Below are positions 3,649-13,893 of a stretch of 38,601 nt of DNA, piece after piece (position 1 is the stretch's first letter; every line of letters begins with the position of its first letter). The position numbers were made by a program, and so were the translations under genes. The DNA lies in the UHGV virus genome UHGV-0307961; one strand, written 5' to 3'. Under the pieces are notes generated by a model, which did no database searches, had not been told where the DNA came from, and saw only the letters and a list, made by a program, of their open reading frames with translations. The DNA comes from a virus.

Positions 3649-3848
3649 TCGCCCTCATTGTCGCCGCCGACGGGAGGGCTTTGGTTCTCGTCATGGCGAT
3701 GGTCGCCGTCATCGTTGGCGCGAAGCTGCGCGACGATGCCGACAAGTCCGCCGACTGGTGCACTCACTGCGACGGGGCCACCGATAGCAAGCCCGGCTCC
3801 TGCCCGCACTGCCACGGCACCGGCATCGAACCGGGGGCACGATCATGA
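3645..3848 (+). CDS. Small membrane protein with a C-terminal CxxC...CxxCxGxG zinc-ribbon
   Basis: AGGAGG RBS then ATG at 3645. Hydrophobic N-terminal half. CTHCDG...CPHCHGTG motif. Confidence 0.45.
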   Translation: MIALIVAADGRALVLVMAMVAVIVGAKLRDDADKSADWCTHCDGATDSKPGSCPHCHGTGIEPGARS

Positions 3849-4195
3849 GCATCAACCCTGTGTTTTGTCTGGACTGCTGGCAGATCGACTACGGGGTGCC
3901 TCCCAAGAATGGCGTGGCGTCAGGCAGCCAGATGATGACGAACCATTGGGATCACTCGTTGCACGTGTTTGGCCCGCCGGATGATTATCCGCCACCAATG
4001 GCTGTCGTGCTGAAAAAGCTTGGTTCGGGGATTCCTGTCAATGTCATTGACATGTGGCTATTTGATCTCTCAATCGCCCTTGACGGCATTCAACCCAACA
4101 ATGGCGTGACCCCTAGACCTCTCGACGACAACGACCCGAGCGGGCGAAAAATCGTGCTCGCTGAACTCGGCATTAAAGCAGGAGGAACAGCATGA
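3845..4195 (+). CDS. Hypothetical protein (low-GC island)
   Basis: 116-aa ORF. It sits in a block whose base composition is markedly lower in GC than its surroundings. Confidence 0.4.
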   Translation: MSINPVFCLDCWQIDYGVPPKNGVASGSQMMTNHWDHSLHVFGPPDDYPPPMAVVLKKLGSGIPVNVIDMWLFDLSIALDGIQPNNGVTPRPLDDNDPSGRKIVLAELGIKAGGTA

Positions 4196-4464
4196 GTGCG
4201 AATGAACCGCGCGCCATTGTCTGCCTAGATCAAGCATGGGTGAAGCTCATGTGGGTACTCGAATATCTCGCAGAGATTAGCCCTGGCGACCTCGAAGAAA
4301 TTGACCCCGACGAAGCCGAAGTGCACCAAGCCGCAATCATGGCGTTACGGCGTGACCTTAAAGTCTCGGAGGTGGCCCTATTTGACATATTCAAAACATT
4401 AGTAATCAAAGCCGACTCAGCAAAGGCGAGCGACGATTCCAGCGCGAAGGGAGAAACGGCATGA
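4192..4464 (+). CDS. Hypothetical protein (low-GC island)
   Basis: AGGAGG RBS and an overlapping stop/start (ATGA) with the upstream ORF. Confidence 0.45.
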   Translation: MSANEPRAIVCLDQAWVKLMWVLEYLAEISPGDLEEIDPDEAEVHQAAIMALRRDLKVSEVALFDIFKTLVIKADSAKASDDSSAKGETA

Positions 4465-4700
4465 ATGACACGGCCAGTGTAGAAATGGCGCTCATGCGGG
4501 ATGCATTGTCGCATCTCAACATCGCAGCAGAGGCCCTGTCAGCCATTGAGGAGGACGACGCGAACCTGTACCGGAATCGCGTCAGATTGTCGGCTATTTT
4601 CACCACGAAGGCCGCCCTCGAAATAGAAGAACTCCTCACCGAATACGAGACCATAACCGACCCGATAGAGGCCGGGGAGTATGAGGGGTGCGCGGAATGA
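4461..4700 (+). CDS. Hypothetical protein (low-GC island)
   Basis: AAGGGAGA RBS, coupled to the upstream gene by an ATGA overlap. Confidence 0.45.
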   Translation: MNDTASVEMALMRDALSHLNIAAEALSAIEEDDANLYRNRVRLSAIFTTKAALEIEELLTEYETITDPIEAGEYEGCAE

Positions 4701-4879
4701 ACACCATCGACAAGTGGAGCTACGCCCGCGTGGAGCGGGACTGGCTGGAGCGGATCAGCCAGCCACCACAGGGCCAGGAGCGCCCCTGCCCGGACTGCAA
4801 CGGCTCGGGCGAGGCCAGGCACGCCGGGTTCTGCCGCACCTGTGGCGGTAGCGGAATCCTCATGGAGGCCCGACGATGA
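4697..4879 (+). CDS. Small zinc-finger protein. An alternative start lies at 4688.
   Basis: CPDCNGSGE...CRTCGGSG (CxxCxGxG repeats). Confidence 0.4.
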   Translation: MNTIDKWSYARVERDWLERISQPPQGQERPCPDCNGSGEARHAGFCRTCGGSGILMEARR

Positions 4880-5814
4880 GACGCTCAGGGATGGCAGTAG
4901 CCCTCGGATCATGGCCGGACGGGTCGCCCGAATGGCTGGAGGCTCGCAGGAGCCGCATCGGAGGCTCCGACATTGCCGCCATCATGGGACTGTCGCCATG
5001 GTGCTCTGCCCGGCAGCTGTGGCACCGCAAGCGCGGCACCATCGACGACAAGCCTTCCAGCGACCTTATGGAGGCAGGCCACTACGTCGAGCCAGCAGCG
5101 GCCAGCTGGTACGCCGACCATCACCTCCCCGAGGGGTTGCACCTGCGCAACACGGGCACGTGGGTCCACCGGTGCAGGGATTGGCAGCTGGCCAACCCTG
5201 ACCGGCTCATTGTCGACAATCCGCACTCGGAGCGGCATCCGGTAGGGGTCCTCGAAATCAAGTTCACGCCCAACAATCCGGGCCAGTGGGGCCGCGACGG
5301 CACCGACAATCCACCGCCTCACTACTGGGCACAGGTGCAGTGGTACATGGACGTTTTCGGCGTCGGCTGGGCTGACGTTGCCGTTCTGTCGACGTGGGGG
5401 TTCCGCTGCTTCCACGTCAAGCGCAACTACGAGTGGCTCAGCCTGGCTCGCCATGAGGCCGAGAACTTCATCGCCATGCTCGAGCTCGGCATCGAGCCCG
5501 ACGACACTCGCGAGACGCCAGCAGCCAGGTACGCCATCGAGAGGTTACGCCACCCCGACATCACCGACGAGCAGGTGACCATCGACGACCCCGATGCTGT
5601 CGACCTCATCGCCAAAGCCGCCCAGCTGCACGCCTCCGCCAAGGCCACCGACACCGAGGCGAGGGAGGTCTCCGATCAGGCCAAGGCAATCCTCGCCCAA
5701 GCCATGGGCGACGCCCGCACCGCCATCGCACCAGACGGCACCCCGCTGGCCACCCGTCGAGCCCGCAAGGGTCGCGACGGCCAACCCGGAACCCCATTCA
5801 TCACCCTCAACTAA
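4876..5814 (+). CDS. YqaJ-like viral recombinase-domain exonuclease (lambda Exo/RecE functional analogue)
   Basis: N-terminal hallmark RIGGSDIAAIMGLSPWCS. It is followed by a RecT-family gene. A GGAGG RBS precedes it. Confidence 0.75.
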   Translation: MRRSGMAVALGSWPDGSPEWLEARRSRIGGSDIAAIMGLSPWCSARQLWHRKRGTIDDKPSSDLMEAGHYVEPAAASWYADHHLPEGLHLRNTGTWVHRCRDWQLANPDRLIVDNPHSERHPVGVLEIKFTPNNPGQWGRDGTDNPPPHYWAQVQWYMDVFGVGWADVAVLSTWGFRCFHVKRNYEWLSLARHEAENFIAMLELGIEPDDTRETPAARYAIERLRHPDITDEQVTIDDPDAVDLIAKAAQLHASAKATDTEAREVSDQAKAILAQAMGDARTAIAPDGTPLATRRARKGRDGQPGTPFITLN

Positions 5815-6907: not shown

Positions 6908-7179
6908 TGGACGACTACATCTGGTCGCACATCAACCCTGACGTGCTCGCCCTCATCGCACTGGATAGGGCCAGGCAGGACCGGGAGTTCTCGGACAAAC
7001 TGCTGGATGACGACTATCGGGGTGGGGCCGATCTTGCCGCTGCGATCGTGCACAACATCGCTGGCCTGGTGCGCTGGCTCGAGGCCATCGACTCACATTA
7101 TGAGGCCGCCGACGGCGAGTCGGGGCTCCTGGCCTCCATGGTTAGTAGGGCGTCCACGAGGGAGCGCTGGCATGACTAG
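6904..7179 (+). CDS. Hypothetical protein
   Basis: 91-aa ORF, coupled to its neighbours. Confidence 0.4.
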   Translation: MMDDYIWSHINPDVLALIALDRARQDREFSDKLLDDDYRGGADLAAAIVHNIAGLVRWLEAIDSHYEAADGESGLLASMVSRASTRERWHD

Positions 7180-7639
7180 CTCTCGGCATCCACTGTCTCT
7201 CGACCCCATACAGGCCGCGAAATCCCTCGAGCGAAACCTGATGTGGACCCCTGATGGGTGTGCCACATCCAAGAGCCGACAGCTGTACATCCGCACTACC
7301 GACGGTGGGTCCGTGGGCCTCTACGCATCCCGCGTGGCGCACGCCTCCACTCATGGGTGGGTCACCTCTCCGGGCAAGCTCCGCCGCACCTGCAGCACCC
7401 CACGGTGTGTCAATCCTGACCATCTTGAGGTCATCGCCTCAGAGTCCGGCGAGGACGACAGGCCACCTGTTGACCTCGACCAGGTCGCCTACCTGCGCGC
7501 CCGTGGGTGGACCTGGCAGCGCATCGGCGAGACCACCGGATGGACCGCGCAGGACGTGGCTGACATCCCCCATATCCGGCGTATTCACGAACCCCTAAAA
7601 AACGACGCACTCGCATACATCGAGAGGCTTGAACAATGA
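7172..7639 (+). CDS. HNH endonuclease
   Basis: C-terminal [14 protein letters not shown] motif. GAGGGAG RBS before the ATG at 7172. Confidence 0.6.
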   Translation: MTSSRHPLSLDPIQAAKSLERNLMWTPDGCATSKSRQLYIRTTDGGSVGLYASRVAHASTHGWVTSPGKLRRTCSTPRCVNPDHLEVIASESGEDDRPPVDLDQVAYLRARGWTWQRIGETTGWTAQDVADIPHIRRIHEPLKNDALAYIERLEQ

Positions 7640-8346
7640 GCGGAGAAACACAGATCTATACGCGCGGGCCGTACAAGCGGAAGGTAACTTCGTGCTCGGT
7701 TCCGGGCTGCGAATCCGGAGGAAGGTTTACTCGCGGATTGTGTAAACGCCATTACGCGCGTCTTTTGAGACACGGCGACACAGGGTCAGCGGAAATGCAG
7801 CACGCTTCTCCGATCACAAATGAGACGTGTTCGGTCGATGGATGTGGAAACCGCGTCCGGTCAAAAGGGCTGTGCTGTGCGCACTACCACCGTCTGCGAA
7901 AGTACGGGACTCCCACTGGGAAGCCACGGCGTGCGTCAGAGGAAGACAGGTTCCTGTCGTACGTCGACATGACATCACACTGCTGGGAATGGACCGGCGG
8001 CCTGATGAGTGGCGGCTACGGAATGTTTCATCTTTCAGACACCACCTGTGAACTAGCCCATCGGTATGCCTACCAACGGTTCGTCGAACCGATCCCGGAA
8101 GGACTGGTCATTGACCATCTGTGCCGAAACCGAAAGTGCGTCAACCCAGACCATCTCGAAGTTGTCACCAATCTAGAAAATCTCCGCAGGGGGATCGGGT
8201 ACAGACTCCAGAATGGTATGGATGACCGCTGTATTCACGGCCACAAATACACAGTGGATAACACTTATATTTCCCCTAAGGGGAAAATACTCTGCCGCAC
8301 TTGCCAGCGCATCGCACAGGCCAAACGAGAAGGGAACGCCTCATGA
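7636..8346 (+). CDS. HNH endonuclease with a zinc-binding CxxC/CxxH N-terminal region. Probable free-standing homing-type HNH.
   Basis: [17 protein letters not shown] plus [10 protein letters not shown]...CKRHY and CSVDGCGN...CCAHY. Its first 21 nt (atgagcggagaaacacagatc) match the first 21 nt of the downstream ssb at 20 of 21 positions. GC is lower than in its neighbours. Confidence 0.6.
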
Positions 8347-8813
8347 GCGGAGAAACACAAATCACGATCGTTGGGAACCTCACCGCTGACGCGAGCCTTG
8401 TTTTCACAAAGTCGGGAACCCCGGTGGCGAATTTCACCGTGGCGAGCACCCCGCGCCGATTCGACAAACAGACCAACGAGTGGCGCGACGGCGATCCAAT
8501 GTTCCTGACCTGCTCGGTGTGGCACCAGTACGCCACCAACGTCGCTGAATCCCTCACCAAGGGGATGCGCGTCATCGTCCAGGGCAACCTCAAGGCCCGC
8601 TCCTACGAGGACCGCGACGGCAACCGTCGCACCTCCTTCGAGATCGACGTGGCCGAGGTGGGCCCGTCGCTGAGGTTCGTCACGGCCCAGGTGGCCCGCA
8701 ACCAGCAGAGCAGCGGACGCCAGCGCGGAACCCAGCCCCAGGGAAACGGCTGGCCCCAGCAGTCCCAGCAGTCGGATCCGTGGGCTGCCCAGTCCGCCGA
8801 CGCGCCTTTCTGA
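8343..8813 (+). CDS. ssb: Single-stranded DNA-binding protein
   Basis: An OB-fold region is followed by a Gly/Gln-rich linker and a C-terminal acidic tail ...DAPF. Confidence 0.85.
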
Positions 8814-9443: not shown

Positions 9444-9808
9444 CCAGCAGTTTCACCGTGCAGATTCCAGCGGAGGAGTGGATGACCTCTAATGGCCGCT
9501 ATCACTGGGCCGACCGTGCCCGCAGGACTCGCGTTCTGCGGGCCATGGCGGCAGTCCAGTGCCGCCGCCATCACATCCACGCTGACGGGCCAGTACGCGT
9601 GGTGGCTGAGATCGGCTACCGCGCTGGCCGCGCCGATCCCGCCAACGGATACCCGACCATCAAGGCCCTGATCGACGGCATGACAGATGCCGGCGTATGG
9701 CCAGATGACGACTCCGAGCACATCATCGGCCCCGACATGCGCCGCGCCGACGTGACGCCACCACGGGGCTACCACACCGTCACCATCACCCTAGAGGAGC
9801 TGTCATGA
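9431..9808 (+). CDS. rusA: RusA-like Holliday junction resolvase
   Basis: ...ADPANGYPTIKALIDGMTDAGVWPDDDSEHIIGP matches the D-x-D-N...DD acidic core of RusA. The protein is ~120 aa. Confidence 0.55.
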   Translation: MLAVTSSFTVQIPAEEWMTSNGRYHWADRARRTRVLRAMAAVQCRRHHIHADGPVRVVAEIGYRAGRADPANGYPTIKALIDGMTDAGVWPDDDSEHIIGPDMRRADVTPPRGYHTVTITLEELS

Positions 9809-10362
9809 CGCTCACCTCAGTGAAACTCACCAAGAGATCGTCACAGCTGGCGTCCCGCGACGTGAGGTGGCTACATCACCGCATCGACAGCACATTCGAG
9901 TCACACCGCACCCTGTGGACCCAGCGCACGCCGGAACACATCCTCGTCAGACACGACCGCTACCGCCCCGGCGCTGACATGTCATGGATAGCATCAGCAG
10001 GAGTCATCGACGACAAGCGCGTCAACGACGGCGACCAGGTCACACTTCGCCTCATCGCATGCCCATGCAAGAGCATCCGCACCACCGCCGGAAAGCGTGG
10101 AACTCGCACGCCGATACCCCCGGGCCGAGACCAGATCACATGGGCCTATGACCGCATTTCAGGTGCCATCGACATCGAGAACCTGACCGCGTCACCACTG
10201 CGCACCTTCTTCGGGTATAAGTCAAGCGGCATCGTCACTATTAAACGCGTCCAGTACATCGTCACTGGCCGCATCGCCAATGCCGCCGAGGTCAACCGGA
10301 TGATTGACGATGGAGTAGGGCCAGACAAGGCCTACGGCTGCGGAATGGTCGTGGTGTCATGA
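9805..10362 (+). CDS. RAMP-like protein (Cas6/Cas5-like candidate) with a C-terminal glycine-rich loop. First gene of a coupled operon.
   Basis: The C-terminal DDGVGPDKAYGCGMVVVS fits the RAMP G-rich loop GhGxxxxxGhG. The gene overlaps the next gene (ATGA). Confidence 0.3.
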   Translation: MTLTSVKLTKRSSQLASRDVRWLHHRIDSTFESHRTLWTQRTPEHILVRHDRYRPGADMSWIASAGVIDDKRVNDGDQVTLRLIACPCKSIRTTAGKRGTRTPIPPGRDQITWAYDRISGAIDIENLTASPLRTFFGYKSSGIVTIKRVQYIVTGRIANAAEVNRMIDDGVGPDKAYGCGMVVVS

Positions 10363-11078
10363 GCGATGCCACCAGACTCGTCTACGACCTCGCCGGGAAT
10401 CCGGAGATCGCCGCCGCATCCACCGCGAAACACCTGCAAAATCACCCCGGAAGGTGCGCCATATGCGGACGCCGCGAGCAGGTGACAGCCGACTTCGACA
10501 ATGCGCTGGGAAAGAACTTCTCCGACCGATCTCTGCTCGATGGTGGCACCTCAAGGGTGTGCACGGCATGCCTGTGGTGTTGCTCTGGTAAGCCACCGGC
10601 CACCCTGCGTATGTGGACCATTGTCGCTGCCGAAGGCACGGACTGCCGCACTCACGAAAAGGCATTCCTCCAGAACACGCCTGGACTGTCGCTCATCAAC
10701 CGTGGCAACCCACAGCCGCTCGTCGACATACTGTCCAACCCACCGGGCGGGCCATGGGTGGCGTCAGTGGCACTGTCTGGCCAGAAGCACGTCCTGCCAT
10801 ACGCCCGCGTCAACCATGGCCGTACCTGGGTAGTTCGCGTCGAGGACACCCAGGTGTCCGCAACCTCTGACGAATGGATGGCAGTTCACGAAGCTGCCGT
10901 GGAGCTGAGACGCATGGGCGTACCGGCGGACGCCGTCCGTGAAGGCCGACCGGCATTCATCAAAACCGCAGATCAGCTCACCCTATGGCGCGACATCGAA
11001 TCCCGTCTCGCCGGATGGCACCGTTCCCCCCTACTCGACCTTGCACTATGGACCATTACGAAAGGAACCATGTCATGA
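10359..11078 (+). CDS. Zinc-finger protein, Csf1/Cas8-like large-subunit candidate
   Basis: CAICGRR...(35 aa)...CTACLWCCSG Cys cluster. 239 aa. The position upstream of a small helical protein and two RAMPs matches type IV loci. Confidence 0.3.
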   Translation: MSDATRLVYDLAGNPEIAAASTAKHLQNHPGRCAICGRREQVTADFDNALGKNFSDRSLLDGGTSRVCTACLWCCSGKPPATLRMWTIVAAEGTDCRTHEKAFLQNTPGLSLINRGNPQPLVDILSNPPGGPWVASVALSGQKHVLPYARVNHGRTWVVRVEDTQVSATSDEWMAVHEAAVELRRMGVPADAVREGRPAFIKTADQLTLWRDIESRLAGWHRSPLLDLALWTITKGTMS

Positions 11079-11476
11079 CCACACCCACATCAGAGGAGCT
11101 CGACGCCATCACCGTCGACCTCATCTTCGCGCTGCGCTCCAGTCTCACGGAGGTGTCACTCATCGACTTCTGGGCAGGCCGTGTCACTGCGGCCATCACC
11201 ACAGCTGCAGCCGGATCAGAGGATGCCGGCCAGGCGATTACGACAGCCTTCCGCAAACTCCAGATCGAGTCGCCTTCCACTAAGTGCGCCGACGACATCA
11301 AGCGCATTGGCCAGGCCATCGACTCCGACTATCAGGCGTGGGCATCGCACGTAAATCGCAACATCGTCTACATCGTTGCCCTGGCCATGACCGAGCGCGA
11401 GAAGCGCAAAACCACCAAGAAAACAACAAAGGCCGCCACGCAAACCGCATCTTTGACCGAGGAGATTCCGTTCTGA
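11075..11476 (+). CDS. Small protein predicted to be alpha-helical, Cas11-like small-subunit candidate
   Basis: 133 aa, rich in Ala/Leu/Ile, with a Lys/Thr-rich tail. It overlaps both neighbours (ATGA and TGATG). Confidence 0.25.
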   Translation: MTTPTSEELDAITVDLIFALRSSLTEVSLIDFWAGRVTAAITTAAAGSEDAGQAITTAFRKLQIESPSTKCADDIKRIGQAIDSDYQAWASHVNRNIVYIVALAMTEREKRKTTKKTTKAATQTASLTEEIPF

Positions 11477-12366
11477 TGAGCACCACCGTCGCCACTATGC
11501 ACCCCCAGTACCAGTACGTCGCCACACTCACATCGCCGTTCGCCCATGGCGCTGGATCATCGGGAAACACCCGCCTGCTGCGCACCCACGAAGTGGTGCA
11601 GCCAGACGACACGACAATTCAGGTTCCGTTCCTGTCGGGAGCATCCATCCGTCATGGCATCCGAAACGCCCTGGCGTGGCGGATCGCCTCCACCTGCTGT
11701 GAGCCTGGCACGATGACGAAGGCCCAGGTCGACCTCCTATGGTCCGGCGGAGCCATCTCATCCACCGGGGCTCAGGTGGACCTCGAGCTACAACGGCGCG
11801 TATCCGAACTTCTCCCCGCACTGTCGGTGCTCGGCTATGCCGCACACTCTGATATCCACGAGGGCACCGCACGCGTCTCGGACGCTATCCTCGTGTGCGC
11901 CGAGAACGCTTTCAGGCTACCAAGCGATGTGGCGCAAGCCAGGCCGCGACGAGCTGGCGCATACCGTGGCGAGGAATTCGGAACCAGGCACGACACCGCA
12001 TCCACACAGCAGGCCAGGATGATCGCCCAACCCGACACGCTCGACGGCGGTTCAATTTCGTCAACCCAAATGATCTTTGACACTCAAGTCCTTCTTGCTG
12101 GCTCGCAGCTGTACGGAACCATTTCCTTGACCCCCGCCGCCACCGAAGAACAGAGGGCTTCCATTCTCGCTGGAATCGGATTGTGGGCACATGATGGAGT
12201 GGCATATCTCGGAGCATCAACGAATACCGGATATGGTGCAGCATTGATCGACTGGCGCGGAACCCTGGACGCCGCCGAGGTCGATAGTGCAATAGGAGCC
12301 CTCGACACACACCTGCATGGCCACTCATCCGACATCAGGGAGCTACTCGCCGAGGTTGCACGATGA
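11476..12366 (+). CDS. Cas7 (Csf2)-like RAMP protein
   Basis: QVPFLSGASIRHGIRNALAW resembles the Cas7 IPGSSIKGxLR element. LLWSGG resembles the LFG element. The C-terminal LGASTNTGYGAAL is a G-rich loop. GAGGAG RBS. 296 aa. Confidence 0.45.
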   Translation: MSTTVATMHPQYQYVATLTSPFAHGAGSSGNTRLLRTHEVVQPDDTTIQVPFLSGASIRHGIRNALAWRIASTCCEPGTMTKAQVDLLWSGGAISSTGAQVDLELQRRVSELLPALSVLGYAAHSDIHEGTARVSDAILVCAENAFRLPSDVAQARPRRAGAYRGEEFGTRHDTASTQQARMIAQPDTLDGGSISSTQMIFDTQVLLAGSQLYGTISLTPAATEEQRASILAGIGLWAHDGVAYLGASTNTGYGAALIDWRGTLDAAEVDSAIGALDTHLHGHSSDIRELLAEVAR

Positions 12367-12947
12367 GGGTCACTGCGCACGTCGACTCTCCTGTCGTCGG
12401 CATCGACGCATGGGCGACACCACTCGATGGCCCCCTGTCGTGGGCGTATGCCATGCGCGCCCACGACAGGGGGGAGCAGATCCCCCCACCACCCACCGCG
12501 TCCACCGAAGCGGCAGACTTCCCGCTCCCGTTGGAGCGGTGGGAGCGGGACGGATGGTGGGGGTGGAGGTCGTCACGCGCCCACGTTGACGCCCCAACAC
12601 ACACTGCTGTGGAGGTGCGCCGCAAGCCCGCCACGGCTCCCATGTCCCTGTGGACGAGCGATGCCAAACATCACACCGGCCTCGGCCCTATGAAGGCCCG
12701 CAATGTCACCCGAGCAGCCATCGTGGCACGCACCATCTGGTGGGACGTCGAGGCCACTGACGCAGACGACCTCTCCAACCTGCTGACGTTCATCACCCAT
12801 GTGGGCGCACGTCACAACGCCGGGTGTGGGCACGTGTCCCACTGGGCCATCGACGACATCGACGGCGACTGGACCGACCGCGACTGGCCACCATCAGCCG
12901 CATGCCGCGCCCCCTACTGGCACCCATCGCGCAGGAGGAAATCATGA
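12363..12947 (+). CDS. Cas5 (Csf3)-like RAMP protein
   Basis: G-rich loop HVGARHNAGCGHV. N-terminal PLDGPLSWAYAMRAH. 194 aa. Coupled to both neighbours. Confidence 0.35.
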   Translation: MRVTAHVDSPVVGIDAWATPLDGPLSWAYAMRAHDRGEQIPPPPTASTEAADFPLPLERWERDGWWGWRSSRAHVDAPTHTAVEVRRKPATAPMSLWTSDAKHHTGLGPMKARNVTRAAIVARTIWWDVEATDADDLSNLLTFITHVGARHNAGCGHVSHWAIDDIDGDWTDRDWPPSAACRAPYWHPSRRRKS

Positions 12948-13180
12948 CCGACGACGACATTCTCGAGGCCGTGTGGCAGTGGCTCCCGCCCAGGCCGGAC
13001 AGGAGACGCGCCATCACGGTCGGTATAGCCGCCGCCGACCTCAGCCTTCCGGCACGCGCTGTATCAGATGCCCTGGCAGAACTGCGGTCCAGGGGTCGCA
13101 TCGAGTACTCGCATCGAGGGCAGCCATACCGGTCCATGGAGATAGGGGGTGTGCCATGCTCATCGACTCGCCGAGGCTAA
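12944..13180 (+). CDS. Small winged-helix-like DNA-binding protein
   Basis: AGGAGG RBS then ATG at 12944. ITVGIAAADLSLPARAVSDALAELRSRGRIEY is a wHTH-like segment. Confidence 0.4.
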   Translation: MTDDDILEAVWQWLPPRPDRRRAITVGIAAADLSLPARAVSDALAELRSRGRIEYSHRGQPYRSMEIGGVPCSSTRRG

Positions 13181-13893
13181 CCGATGCGGACAGGCGCACC
13201 TGGTCTGACCTGGAGCGCTACGACCGCGCCCTGGCCGCTGACCCAAGATGGCCATCCAGGGAGAAGCGCGCCCACGACATCATCCGCCGCTTCGCCCAGG
13301 ATGGCGCGTGTTACGCCTCCACCTCCTGGGGCAAGGACTCCACTGTCGTCGCCCATCTCGTCGCCACCAGCGGTGTCACCCTGCCACTGGTGTACGTGCG
13401 CATGCGCCGATGGGAAAGCCCCGAGTGCCTCACCGTCCGCGACGCGTTCCTCGAACGGTGGGGTGACTATGTCGACTACCACGAGTACTGGGTCGATGGC
13501 GGTCCGCGATGGTGGGACGACATCGAGCTACAGGACCGCAAGGGGTCGCACGCAAAGGGGCAGTTCACTGGCCCGGAAGTCGACTTTGGCTCGCGTCACA
13601 TCACCGGCGTGAGAGGCGAGGAGTCCGCCATGCGCGACATGGTCATCGCACGGTGGGGTGAGGCTGGGCCTGGCGCGTGCAGGCCCATCGGCAGGTGGAC
13701 CGCCGTAGATGTGTTCGCCTACCTATGCCGCCACAACCTGCCAGTGCATCCCGCCTACGCCATGAGCTGCGGTGGGCACTACGACCGTCGCTGGTTGCGC
13801 GTCTCCCCCATTGGGGGCATCACACAGGCACACAAGGGCCGCTCGGGATGGGAGCAGACCTACTACCCAGACATCACCGGGAGGAAGGCATGA
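13156..13893 (+). CDS. PAPS-reductase-family (CysH-like) PP-loop protein
   Basis: SWGKDSTVVAHL is a variant PP-loop (canonical SGGKDS). Downstream ITGVRGEESAMR. GGAGATAGGGGG RBS before the ATG at 13156. Confidence 0.6.
   Translation: MLIDSPRLTDADRRTWSDLERYDRALAADPRWPSREKRAHDIIRRFAQDGACYASTSWGKDSTVVAHLVATSGVTLPLVYVRMRRWESPECLTVRDAFLERWGDYVDYHEYWVDGGPRWWDDIELQDRKGSHAKGQFTGPEVDFGSRHITGVRGEESAMRDMVIARWGEAGPGACRPIGRWTAVDVFAYLCRHNLPVHPAYAMSCGGHYDRRWLRVSPIGGITQAHKGRSGWEQTYYPDITGRKA

Follow-up and report, generated by a model that had tools for sequence, protein, structure and literature searches.

According to our in silico analysis of UHGV-0307961, a siphovirus-like prophage of Cutibacterium avidum (38,601 nucleotides (nt); this whole stretch of DNA is called the window below), a 707-bp segment is an HNH_3 endonuclease gene inserted into the first codons of the prophage ssb gene. 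The insertion brings a second copy of the ssb start, and this duplication, as read from the sequence, is what keeps the ssb coding sequence full-length. We consider it likely that the inserted gene belongs to a lineage of free-standing homing endonucleases that targets phage ssb genes; both the cleavage of ssb and the homing are predicted from the comparison of alleles. The HNH sequence is near-invariant over many mosaic backgrounds, which points to a recent spread. No intron or intein surrounds the HNH gene, and its ssb neighbor is a complete open reading frame (ORF) with the full SSB domain.

Three ORFs follow each other on the plus strand of the window: an upstream gene of 155 amino acids (aa) at 7172–7639, the HNH_3 ORF of 236 aa at 7636–8346, and ssb, intact, of 156 aa at 8343–8813. 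A first-pass annotation made from the sequence alone had reported that the starts at 7636 and 8343 match at 20 of 21 positions, that both proteins begin MSGETQI, and that the HNH gene is low in GC and overlaps its neighbors by 4 nt. The sequence and the ORF map agree with it on each of these points. By direct reading and by a repeat search, the left copy (7636–7656, ATGAGCGGAGAAACACAGATC), an ssb-type start in frame with the HNH ORF, is identical at 20/21 positions to the right copy (8343–8363, ATGAGCGGAGAAACACAAATC), which is the working start of ssb, at a spacing of 707 nt. There is no likeness past either end of the repeat. When up to 3 mismatches are allowed, the 21-mer occurs at these two sites only in the 38.6-kb window, against 0 expected from 100 shuffles, and the match is therefore not a general ribosome-binding site or start consensus. 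The same gene layout is found on more than 60 independently assembled contigs, and thus is not an assembly artefact.

The DNA unique to occupied alleles covers 686 nt (7657–8342, plus strand, GC 0.554) and makes up, with one repeat copy, the 707-bp insertion. Both gene junctions are ATGA overlaps: the TGA of the 155-aa gene overlaps the HNH ATG, and because the insert length is 2 mod 3, the HNH frame stops at the TGA inside the ATGA of the right repeat copy. A Shine-Dalgarno-like GAGAGG (7622–7627, plus strand) stands 8 nt 5' of the ATG at 7636, and a second one, GAAGGGA (8329–8335, plus strand), lies within the final HNH codons, 7 nt 5' of the ssb ATG; both are putative signals. Since the same upstream sequence abuts the ssb ATG in empty alleles, the HNH gene now sits on the original translation-initiation region of ssb. 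This arrangement would place the nuclease gene in the same transcript as ssb, with translational coupling on both sides, if the predicted starts are used. The GC content of the HNH ORF is 0.550 (55.0%) compared to a window mean of 0.645 (64.5%; standard deviation 0.033, 700-nt windows), which makes it the second-lowest stretch of the window. The low GC of the first 100 nt of ssb was not used as a sign of foreign origin: by eye, the 5' end of the other ssb allele type described below is similarly GC-poor.

The 236-aa ORF matches the Pfam family HNH_3 (PF13392) with an E value of 6.9e-15 and 54.9 bits against a cut-off of 24.8, over profile positions 2–46 of 46, and also matches PHROG HNH families (best E value 3.4e-45). 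A pair of Cys/His-rich repeats makes up the N-terminal part of the protein, a His-Me finger forms its core, and the C-terminal region is again Cys/His-rich. Residues D160, H161, N170, H173, E181 and N182 are all present and are invariant across 20 aligned homologues; we assume for them the roles of their counterparts in I-HmuI-type enzymes, with an Asp-His general base, a structural Asn and a metal-binding Asn toward the C-terminus. By these residues the protein is predicted to be an intact enzyme with nuclease activity. A PDB sequence search found no solved structure with a sequence match to it. The protein is 100% identical to WP_353956327.1 of C. avidum in NCBI and is carried by 63 contigs.

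Its N-terminus shows the direction of the copying. An SSB-like start is confined to one of the 120 best HNH homologues, the protein of the window itself. The rest open with MPNYTRKAT.CSV.GC or similar, and the seven ssb-derived codons are joined just 5' of the conserved YTR of this native N-terminus. The SSBs of this phage group nearly all start M[SA]GET.I. As 0 of the 119 other HNH homologues start in this way while almost all SSBs do, the copying went from ssb to the HNH gene.

A megablast of the region against GenBank phages gave no match, so relatives were sought through proteins. Four IMG/VR prophages (L001–L004) were reached via their SSB (79–92% identical), and two further groups (L218–L221 and L242–L245) by an exact-protein look-up in ENA/Logan. 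In L001–L004, the ssb ATG directly adjoins the homologue of the 155-aa gene (at the equivalent of window 7576–7635), the ssb start is single and there is no HNH gene. The same is true of L218–L221 and L242–L245, where ssb lies directly 3' of the 155-aa gene with a single copy of its start. L221 is an exact empty allele: it is identical to the window over 7575–7635 (61 nt) and again over 8343–8467 (125 nt). A duplicated ssb start was found in none of these HNH-less relatives. This is the outcome that the first-pass annotation had anticipated for phages lacking the insert, and its proposal of an insertion that copied the ssb start gains support from both the exact empty site and the absence of ssb-like starts from the other homologues. 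Close relatives thus either have or lack the HNH gene at a single fixed locus, and the empty site is precise.

We then compared the empty loci with the occupied ones (L051–L069, L071, L073, L222–L227 and L236–L237). In the 29 occupied loci whose HNH gene is complete, there are 19 flank haplotypes and only two HNH alleles, which differ from the window by 0–1 nt or by 14/711 nt (about 2%). The 155-aa gene and ssb on either side of the insert diverge by 3–9% among these loci, with many recombination breakpoints. At the protein level, the 90% cluster of the HNH protein holds a handful of variants with 1–8 aa differences. The alleles P0001 and P0244 are separated by 8 non-synonymous and 6 synonymous changes; five of the 8 amino-acid differences (T210A, K217E, I218M, L219R and Q224R) cluster in the C-terminal Cys-rich region, residues 210–224 (window 8263–8307). 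This cluster could reflect a shifted DNA recognition or a relaxed constraint.

The ssb gene itself exists in two types. The SSB of the window (Pfam PF00436, 7.4e-28, 97.1 bits against a cut-off of 26, residues 6–106 covered; PHROG_44, 4.2e-45) differs from the canonical N-terminus, here called type B (MSGETPITVVGNL.SDPELRFT.NG), in that the conserved DPELRF loop motif is replaced by DASLVF. We call this form type A. Between 8348 and 8414, about 26 of 67 nt (39%) differ between the two types. The type A 5' segment (8343–8443, plus strand) is tied to the HNH gene in all 29 occupied loci, with 0–1 mismatch over its 101 nt; the stretch of type A sequence reaches from 8343 to 8437 or further in each of them. 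The type B allele P0133 is always empty (14 contigs read, of which 4 places are shown and the other 10 are reported as similar).

The empty L001 and the occupied L057 differ in a single patch. The two are identical over approximately 1270 nt upstream and 900 nt downstream, and all that separates them between these blocks is the insert, 22 substitutions within the 250 nt on its left and 24 substitutions within the initial 72 nt of ssb, so that L057 has donor-type sequence on either side of the insert. Such a patch is the pattern expected of homing with co-conversion, though it is not a proof of it. Left breakpoints vary among loci, that of L053 being within about 20 nt of the HNH ATG, and right breakpoints vary too.

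The second HNH allele, 14/711 nt away from that of the window, is carried by six loci (L222–L227) in a longer arrangement. Here the order is the 155-aa gene, a type B ssb remnant, 126 nt of foreign DNA, the HNH gene and a type A ssb. The remnant comprises 21 codons (63 nt, MSGETPITVVGNLTSDPELRF) and ends exactly after DPELRF, the place at which the carrier's own ssb allele is recoded; both facts bear on the predicted cleavage and immunity. The 126 nt are unrelated DNA with one open frame ending in …NGKDIS* at an ATGA overlap, and the HNH gene behind them starts ATGAGCGGCGAGACACAGATC (MSGETQI). Because the HNH gene begins with MSGETQI even behind foreign DNA, the ssb-like start predates the entry into the type B phage. 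As judged from this order, the HNH gene arrived together with a piece of its previous neighbor and with a type A ssb 5' end. A blastn search with the 126-nt piece gave mycobacteriophage matches of 46 nt at 83% only, which were not convincing.

These loci also suggest how the other alleles are related. The 60 nt upstream in L222 equal those of the empty L002, and in L002, L218 and L219 the type B codon 2 (AGT) is joined to type A sequence. The latter three look like the product expected from a deletion between the start of the remnant and the start of ssb. The left repeat copy of the window has GGAGAA as in ssb and CAG as in the long-form HNH gene, so its 21-nt repeat may come from a single crossover between a type A ssb start and an HNH start, somewhere between positions 13 and 17, and not from fresh copying. 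The most economical history, as we infer it, starts with the long form, passes through its loss, which would have left the type A empty alleles, and ends with the compact re-fusion seen in the window.

The same arrangement was found in other actinobacterial phages. Every close HNH homologue with a usable context that we examined lies directly 5' of ssb, in different backbones. These ssb-adjoining relatives (51–58% identity) are L075 from IMG/VR (58%), L228–L231, L232–L234 and L235. The gene 5' of HNH is a 265-aa gene in L228–L231, DnaB in L232–L234 and a dUTPase in L235. Among 80 IMG/VR loci with more distant HNH_3 homologues, L075 is the only one with an SSB ORF within 3 kb, while in GTDB ssb is immediately downstream in 7 of the 80 best HNH matches, including ranks 1–4. 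Conversely, a set of 50 IMG/VR ssb loci includes 8–9 with an HNH_3 ORF whose end is no more than 4 nt away from the ssb ATG. A Shine-Dalgarno sequence inside the C-terminal HNH codons, with stop and start within 4 nt, is likewise present in 8–9 other HNH-ssb loci and in Rhodococcus phage REQ3, whose gp25 (HNH) overlaps gp26 (SSB) by 4 nt. In phages Piper2020 and Malisha, distant HNH_3 homologues are part of tail and lysis modules; the association with ssb therefore belongs to a sub-clade and not to HNH_3 as a whole.

Several of these loci keep relics of the ssb 5' end upstream of, or fused to, the HNH gene. In-frame capture of ssb codons is seen in L075 (5 codons, MAGET joined to GQCSVDGC, with ssb restarting as MTNITIIGNL), in the window (7 codons) and in L029 (12 codons, MANETVLTIVGN up to the junction). 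Terminated remnants are seen in L232 (9 codons, VSGETQITI), in L235 (16 codons, MAQGDTPITIVGNVVA) and in the 21-codon case of L222. The break points of all these relics fall within the first 63 nt of ssb. In favor of homing, HNH adjacency also goes along with a changed SSB motif: departure from DPELR[FWY] is seen in 10 of 14 HNH-adjacent ssb genes and in 4 of 32 HNH-less ones (Fisher p = 1.6e-4, uncorrected for phylogeny), and with the GTDB loci added in 12/19 HNH-adjacent genes.

Long-form cassettes of unrelated phages (L232:2400–2500, L235:2400–2500 and L034:4340–4445) share a conserved leader of about 100 nt 5' of the HNH ATG, which the compact form of the window does not have. The leader holds a -10-like box (TAAACT, TATAAT or TAAAAT), a hairpin that appears to covary (GGAGCG…CGCTC vs CCGGTG…CACC), the stretch CTGACCCnCTC…GCAAGGAGGGGCT and a strong Shine-Dalgarno sequence. 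No Rfam match to this leader was found. Some gene callers read through it, giving the N-terminal extensions of P0011 and P0052. In L232, a sewage-metagenome phage contig, genes for an IS605-family TnpB (OrfB_IS605 / Cas12f1-like_TNB) and a Y1 transposase lie about 600 nt 3' of the HNH-ssb pair (4307–5714); they are unrelated to it.

From these alleles we propose the following course of homing. When related phages are co-resident, the HNH enzyme would nick or cut the ssb allele that lacks the HNH gene. The putative target is the conserved 5' coding region of such alleles near the GNL..DPELRF codons, at nt 63 or past it; the break is placed there because the longest remnant ends after the DPELRF codons. 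Recombinational repair would then copy the HNH gene together with the adjacent, divergent type A ssb 5' segment, which would make the recipient immune. On first entry into a new ssb allele, the left junction would be illegitimate, formed after resection, and would leave a truncated remnant of 5–21 codons; such joining would produce variable remnant lengths. An in-frame fusion may let this remnant act as the HNH start. The window would represent the most compact form, probably reached via a crossover of the ssb start with an already ssb-like HNH start.

It is also conceivable, though we hold it with some doubt, that this HNH_3 lineage specializes in the 5' end of ssb and travels as a composite cassette made of the nuclease and about 70–100 nt of recoded, immune ssb. 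The ssb replacement would then be what alters the near-universal DPELRF motif. On this proposal, every jump into another ssb allele would leave the 5' end of ssb behind in truncated form, and this remnant can be co-opted as the ribosome-binding site and start codons of the nuclease (a "start capture"). The ssb-like 21 nt, when once gained, may then be carried along as a left homology arm and make entry into further ssb alleles easier. In lysogens, the cassette would be a weapon between phages that excludes markers of incoming or co-resident relatives. The 155-aa gene and the tandem HNH genes of L034 and REQ3, described below, would be fossils of earlier invasions.

Several points weigh against homing into ssb. 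Cleavage by the HNH protein and the position of its target site are both predictions. The excess of departures from DPELR[FWY] among HNH-adjacent ssb genes is uncorrected for phylogeny, and 7/19 of these genes keep the motif in its canonical form. The type A segment is also present in empty alleles (L002 and L218–L221), and part of the L001/L057 "co-conversion tract" could therefore predate the HNH gene. For the same reason, the idea that this segment is exclusive to HNH carriers was rejected. The constant 95–100 nt on the right of the insert may be explained by a lack of homology inside the patch of 39% divergence, which would force crossovers beyond it. Many loci were collected by exact-protein look-up, which hides non-synonymous HNH variation and leaves synonymous variation visible; among loci sharing the exact protein, no synonymous HNH variants were found. 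The origin of the 126-nt piece was not traced: a peptide search and an exact-pattern scan of IMG/VR both found nothing.

Decayed copies of the HNH gene were not found either, and this also tells against homing. Short members of the protein family (P0241–P0243, 107–113 aa, and P0248, 116 aa) were at first read as signs of decay, a reading that was withdrawn, the DNA having been checked for P0241. In two of its loci (L236 and L237) the HNH gene is identical to that of the window at 711/711 nt, and the third locus has a scaffold gap; the apparent truncations at the P0241 loci are annotation artefacts or scaffold gaps. In L236:1114–1824 and L237:1114–1824 (GCA_036906055.1 and GCA_031158635.1), only the last 107 HNH codons are annotated (WP_373430832.1), and the 380-nt "gap" left 3' of the 155-aa gene is a gene-calling artefact. 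The atypical start or composition probably causes this mis-call, and the element could escape surveys in the same way.

The strongest competitor to homing, which we nevertheless judge unlikely, is a passive passenger, namely one insertion at the ssb start that was spread by recombinase-driven mosaicism with no cleavage of ssb; the HNH protein may then be inactive on an ssb target or serve another role. This explanation draws on the fact that the prophages are highly mosaic and encode their own recombinase pair, a YqaJ exonuclease and a RecT-like annealase, adjoining this region, that different prophages often share long identical blocks, and that type A ssb segments are found without the HNH gene. 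The same mosaicism counts against homing, as identical segments are commonly shared across these mosaics. However, the neighboring segments are multi-haplotype, whereas the HNH gene is essentially of one type, with a second 2% apart, over 19 flank haplotypes. A one-off insertion does not predict the same position in unrelated backbones with independent ssb relics, and the catalytic residues are fully conserved.

We give much less credit to a functional operon partnership, in which the HNH protein would work with SSB in phage replication or recombination and their linkage would reflect this co-function. The translationally coupled HNH-ssb adjacency is indeed conserved in many actinobacterial phages, and the HNH gene lies inside a recombination/replication module. 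Yet its presence varies between near-identical prophages with a precise empty site, its GC content is deviant, and 41 of 50 ssb loci of related phages have no HNH gene. The truncated or captured ssb 5' ends upstream of HNH in at least 6 lineages are insertion scars, which co-function does not explain.

A transposon-like insertion that generated a 21-bp target-site duplication by staggered cleavage and fill-in is highly improbable. The insert is flanked by 21-nt direct repeats, as this would require, but its 707 bp encode no transposase or recombinase, the sole ORF being the HNH_3 nuclease, and a repeat search of the insert ends found no inverted repeats joining them. Moreover, where a 21-nt duplication would be expected, the long form has 126 nt of foreign DNA and a diverged 63-nt remnant, and the remnants of 5–16 codons in other lineages show that the repeat length is not a fixed property of the element. 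Finally, coincidence, or a favored initiation sequence shared by both genes, is refuted: M[SA]GET is a common start among actinobacterial SSBs, but the 21-mer has no third copy in the window at 3 mismatches with 0 expected, no other HNH homologue starts this way, and the empty sites are single-copy.

The gene upstream of the insert deserves separate treatment, since the first-pass annotation had described both ORFs 5' of ssb as tandem HNH endonucleases. This description holds for the second ORF, an intact HNH_3 protein, and fails for the first (7172–7639, plus strand), which is HNH_3-derived, catalytically degenerate and part of the backbone, outside the insert. The 155-aa protein has no Pfam match even at E = 10 and none in NCBIfam, and it matches PHROG HNH families (PHROG_1872, 1.6e-9; PHROG_826, 4.5e-7). 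With hhalign it aligns to the HNH clade profile at 90% probability (E 1.5e-6, 43 columns). In this alignment, RR71-72 takes the place of DH160-161 of the HNH protein, and ASESG stands at TNLEN. The Arg-Arg in place of Asp-His is invariant among 9 relatives, the distal Asn motif is gone too, and the part C-terminal to the HNH-like core is helical. Lacking the catalytic Asp-His and the metal-binding Asn, it should not be filed as an active endonuclease.

The 155-aa gene is found in occupied and empty loci alike, and in the latter it has an ATGA overlap with ssb. It is a backbone gene for an HNH-derived protein that is probably inactive as a nuclease, and it may have been left by an earlier invasion of this site. 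Elsewhere, two tandem HNH_3 ORFs stand directly 5' of ssb in L034 (3697–4995), and in REQ3 (L239, 10266–12172) the HNH genes gp23 and gp25 lie within 2 kb 5' of the SSB gene. Together with the 155-aa gene, these tandem genes suggest that the same hotspot was invaded repeatedly.

Free-standing homing endonucleases are already known, including one aimed at a phage ssb gene. SegG of phage T4, a free-standing GIY-YIG enzyme whose gene lies between genes 32 and 59, cuts the T2 version of gene 32 and co-converts flanking markers, and the gene 32 promoters lie inside the segG ORF (PMC2988022). The same review covers promoter-less endonuclease cassettes, overlaps with upstream ORFs and nicking by HNH-type Mob enzymes, as well as transposition-like insertions that split host genes, such as mobE in Aeh1 nrdA, mobA in T4 gene 39/60 and seg43 in phage 25 gene 43 (PMC2988022). 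The element of the window resembles SegG in being a free-standing nuclease gene that adjoins a phage ssb gene (gene 32 in T4) and would target that gene in endonuclease-less relatives. In both cases, the endonuclease ORF contains signals for expressing the essential ssb gene, putative ones in the window, and this favors retention; neither cassette brings a promoter, and both depend on host signals upstream. The two differ in nuclease family (GIY-YIG vs HNH_3) and in host, a virulent T-even Escherichia coli phage compared to a temperate actinobacterial prophage. SegG does not carry the gene 32 start codons, and no partial duplication of the target 5' end is described for it. Its cleavage has been demonstrated, while that by the window's HNH protein is predicted.

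T4 MobE and MobA and the Bacillus phage enzymes I-HmuI and I-HmuII are of the same HNH/His-Me finger class and all show a high frequency of inheritance; the Mob enzymes are free-standing as well. Single-strand nicking and expression through an overlap with an upstream ORF are features of this group. These enzymes differ from ours in their targets (nrdB, gene 39 and DNA polymerase) and in being intron-encoded (I-HmuI) or intergenic, and no capture of start codons is described for them. We take I-HmuI to belong to the same Pfam family, HNH_3, a link that goes through the family and not through any PDB sequence match. The gene-splitting insertions (mobE, mobA and seg43) are alike in that a free-standing endonuclease sits inside an essential gene after a non-homing event and the host gene stays functional. 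There, however, the host protein is split in two; here the insertion hits the first 5–21 codons, a duplicate or replacement 5' end keeps ssb full-length, and what is left over of the 5' codons is either a dead remnant or the start of the endonuclease itself. The REQ3 gp25/gp26 pair shows the same architecture, with a 4-nt HNH-SSB overlap, as the window and loci L018–L039. Its gp25 differs in having approximately 30–45% identity to the window HNH protein and no ssb-like start or remnant detected on a scan, and our literature search found no description of this type of pair as a mobile element.

Within this limited search, four features appear undescribed: an HNH_3 lineage associated with the ssb genes of actinobacterial phages, start codons captured in frame from the target, the linked recoding of a near-universal SSB motif, and the series of compact, long and empty alleles. 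We regard the case as well supported and instructive and its target prediction as testable, and not as a new principle.

Two other regions of the window are worth recording. The prophage contains a type IV-like set of CRISPR-Cas genes at 9805–13893 (plus strand). It comprises a Cas6e-like ORF (9805–10362; Pfam CRISPR_assoc, 2.5e-12, above the cut-off), a Csf1-like ORF (10359–11078; NCBIfam, 7.5e-8, below the cut-off), a weak Cas7-like match (11284–12366), a Csf3-like ORF (12363–12947; 2.5e-8, below the cut-off) and a PAPS-reductase/CysH-like ORF (12799–13893; 1.2e-8). No CRISPR-like array was found in the window, and the set resembles an array-less type IV-B module. Among the relatives, Cas6-like and Csf1-like genes are present in L061, L067 and L071 only. 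The lowest GC of the window (0.534–0.55 in 700-nt windows, mean 0.645) is at 3800–4700, between antirepressor-like genes and the recombination module; this stretch could be regulatory, or could have been acquired as well.

T-even phages are the main source of known free-standing homing endonucleases, and the target sites there had to be located experimentally. The prophages of this human skin and gut commensal offer a natural series instead, with an exact empty site, compact and long forms and resistant-looking empty alleles. Along with the parallels in unrelated actinobacterial phages, this series predicts that the target is the conserved 5' coding region of ssb, that immunity is determined by the recoded ssb segment with its changed DPELRF motif, and that a first invasion proceeds through an illegitimate left junction and a homologous right one. 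It also illustrates a cost-free insertion inside an essential gene, in which a few codons are duplicated and the gene's own start signal is taken over. On the practical side, annotation pipelines mis-call the HNH ORF, as in the two NCBI assemblies above. If the predicted cleavage is true, the lineage would supply new sequence-specific nickases or nucleases with a defined target, and would be a tractable model of the way in which mosaicism and the replacement of alleles in temperate phages are driven by selfish nucleases.

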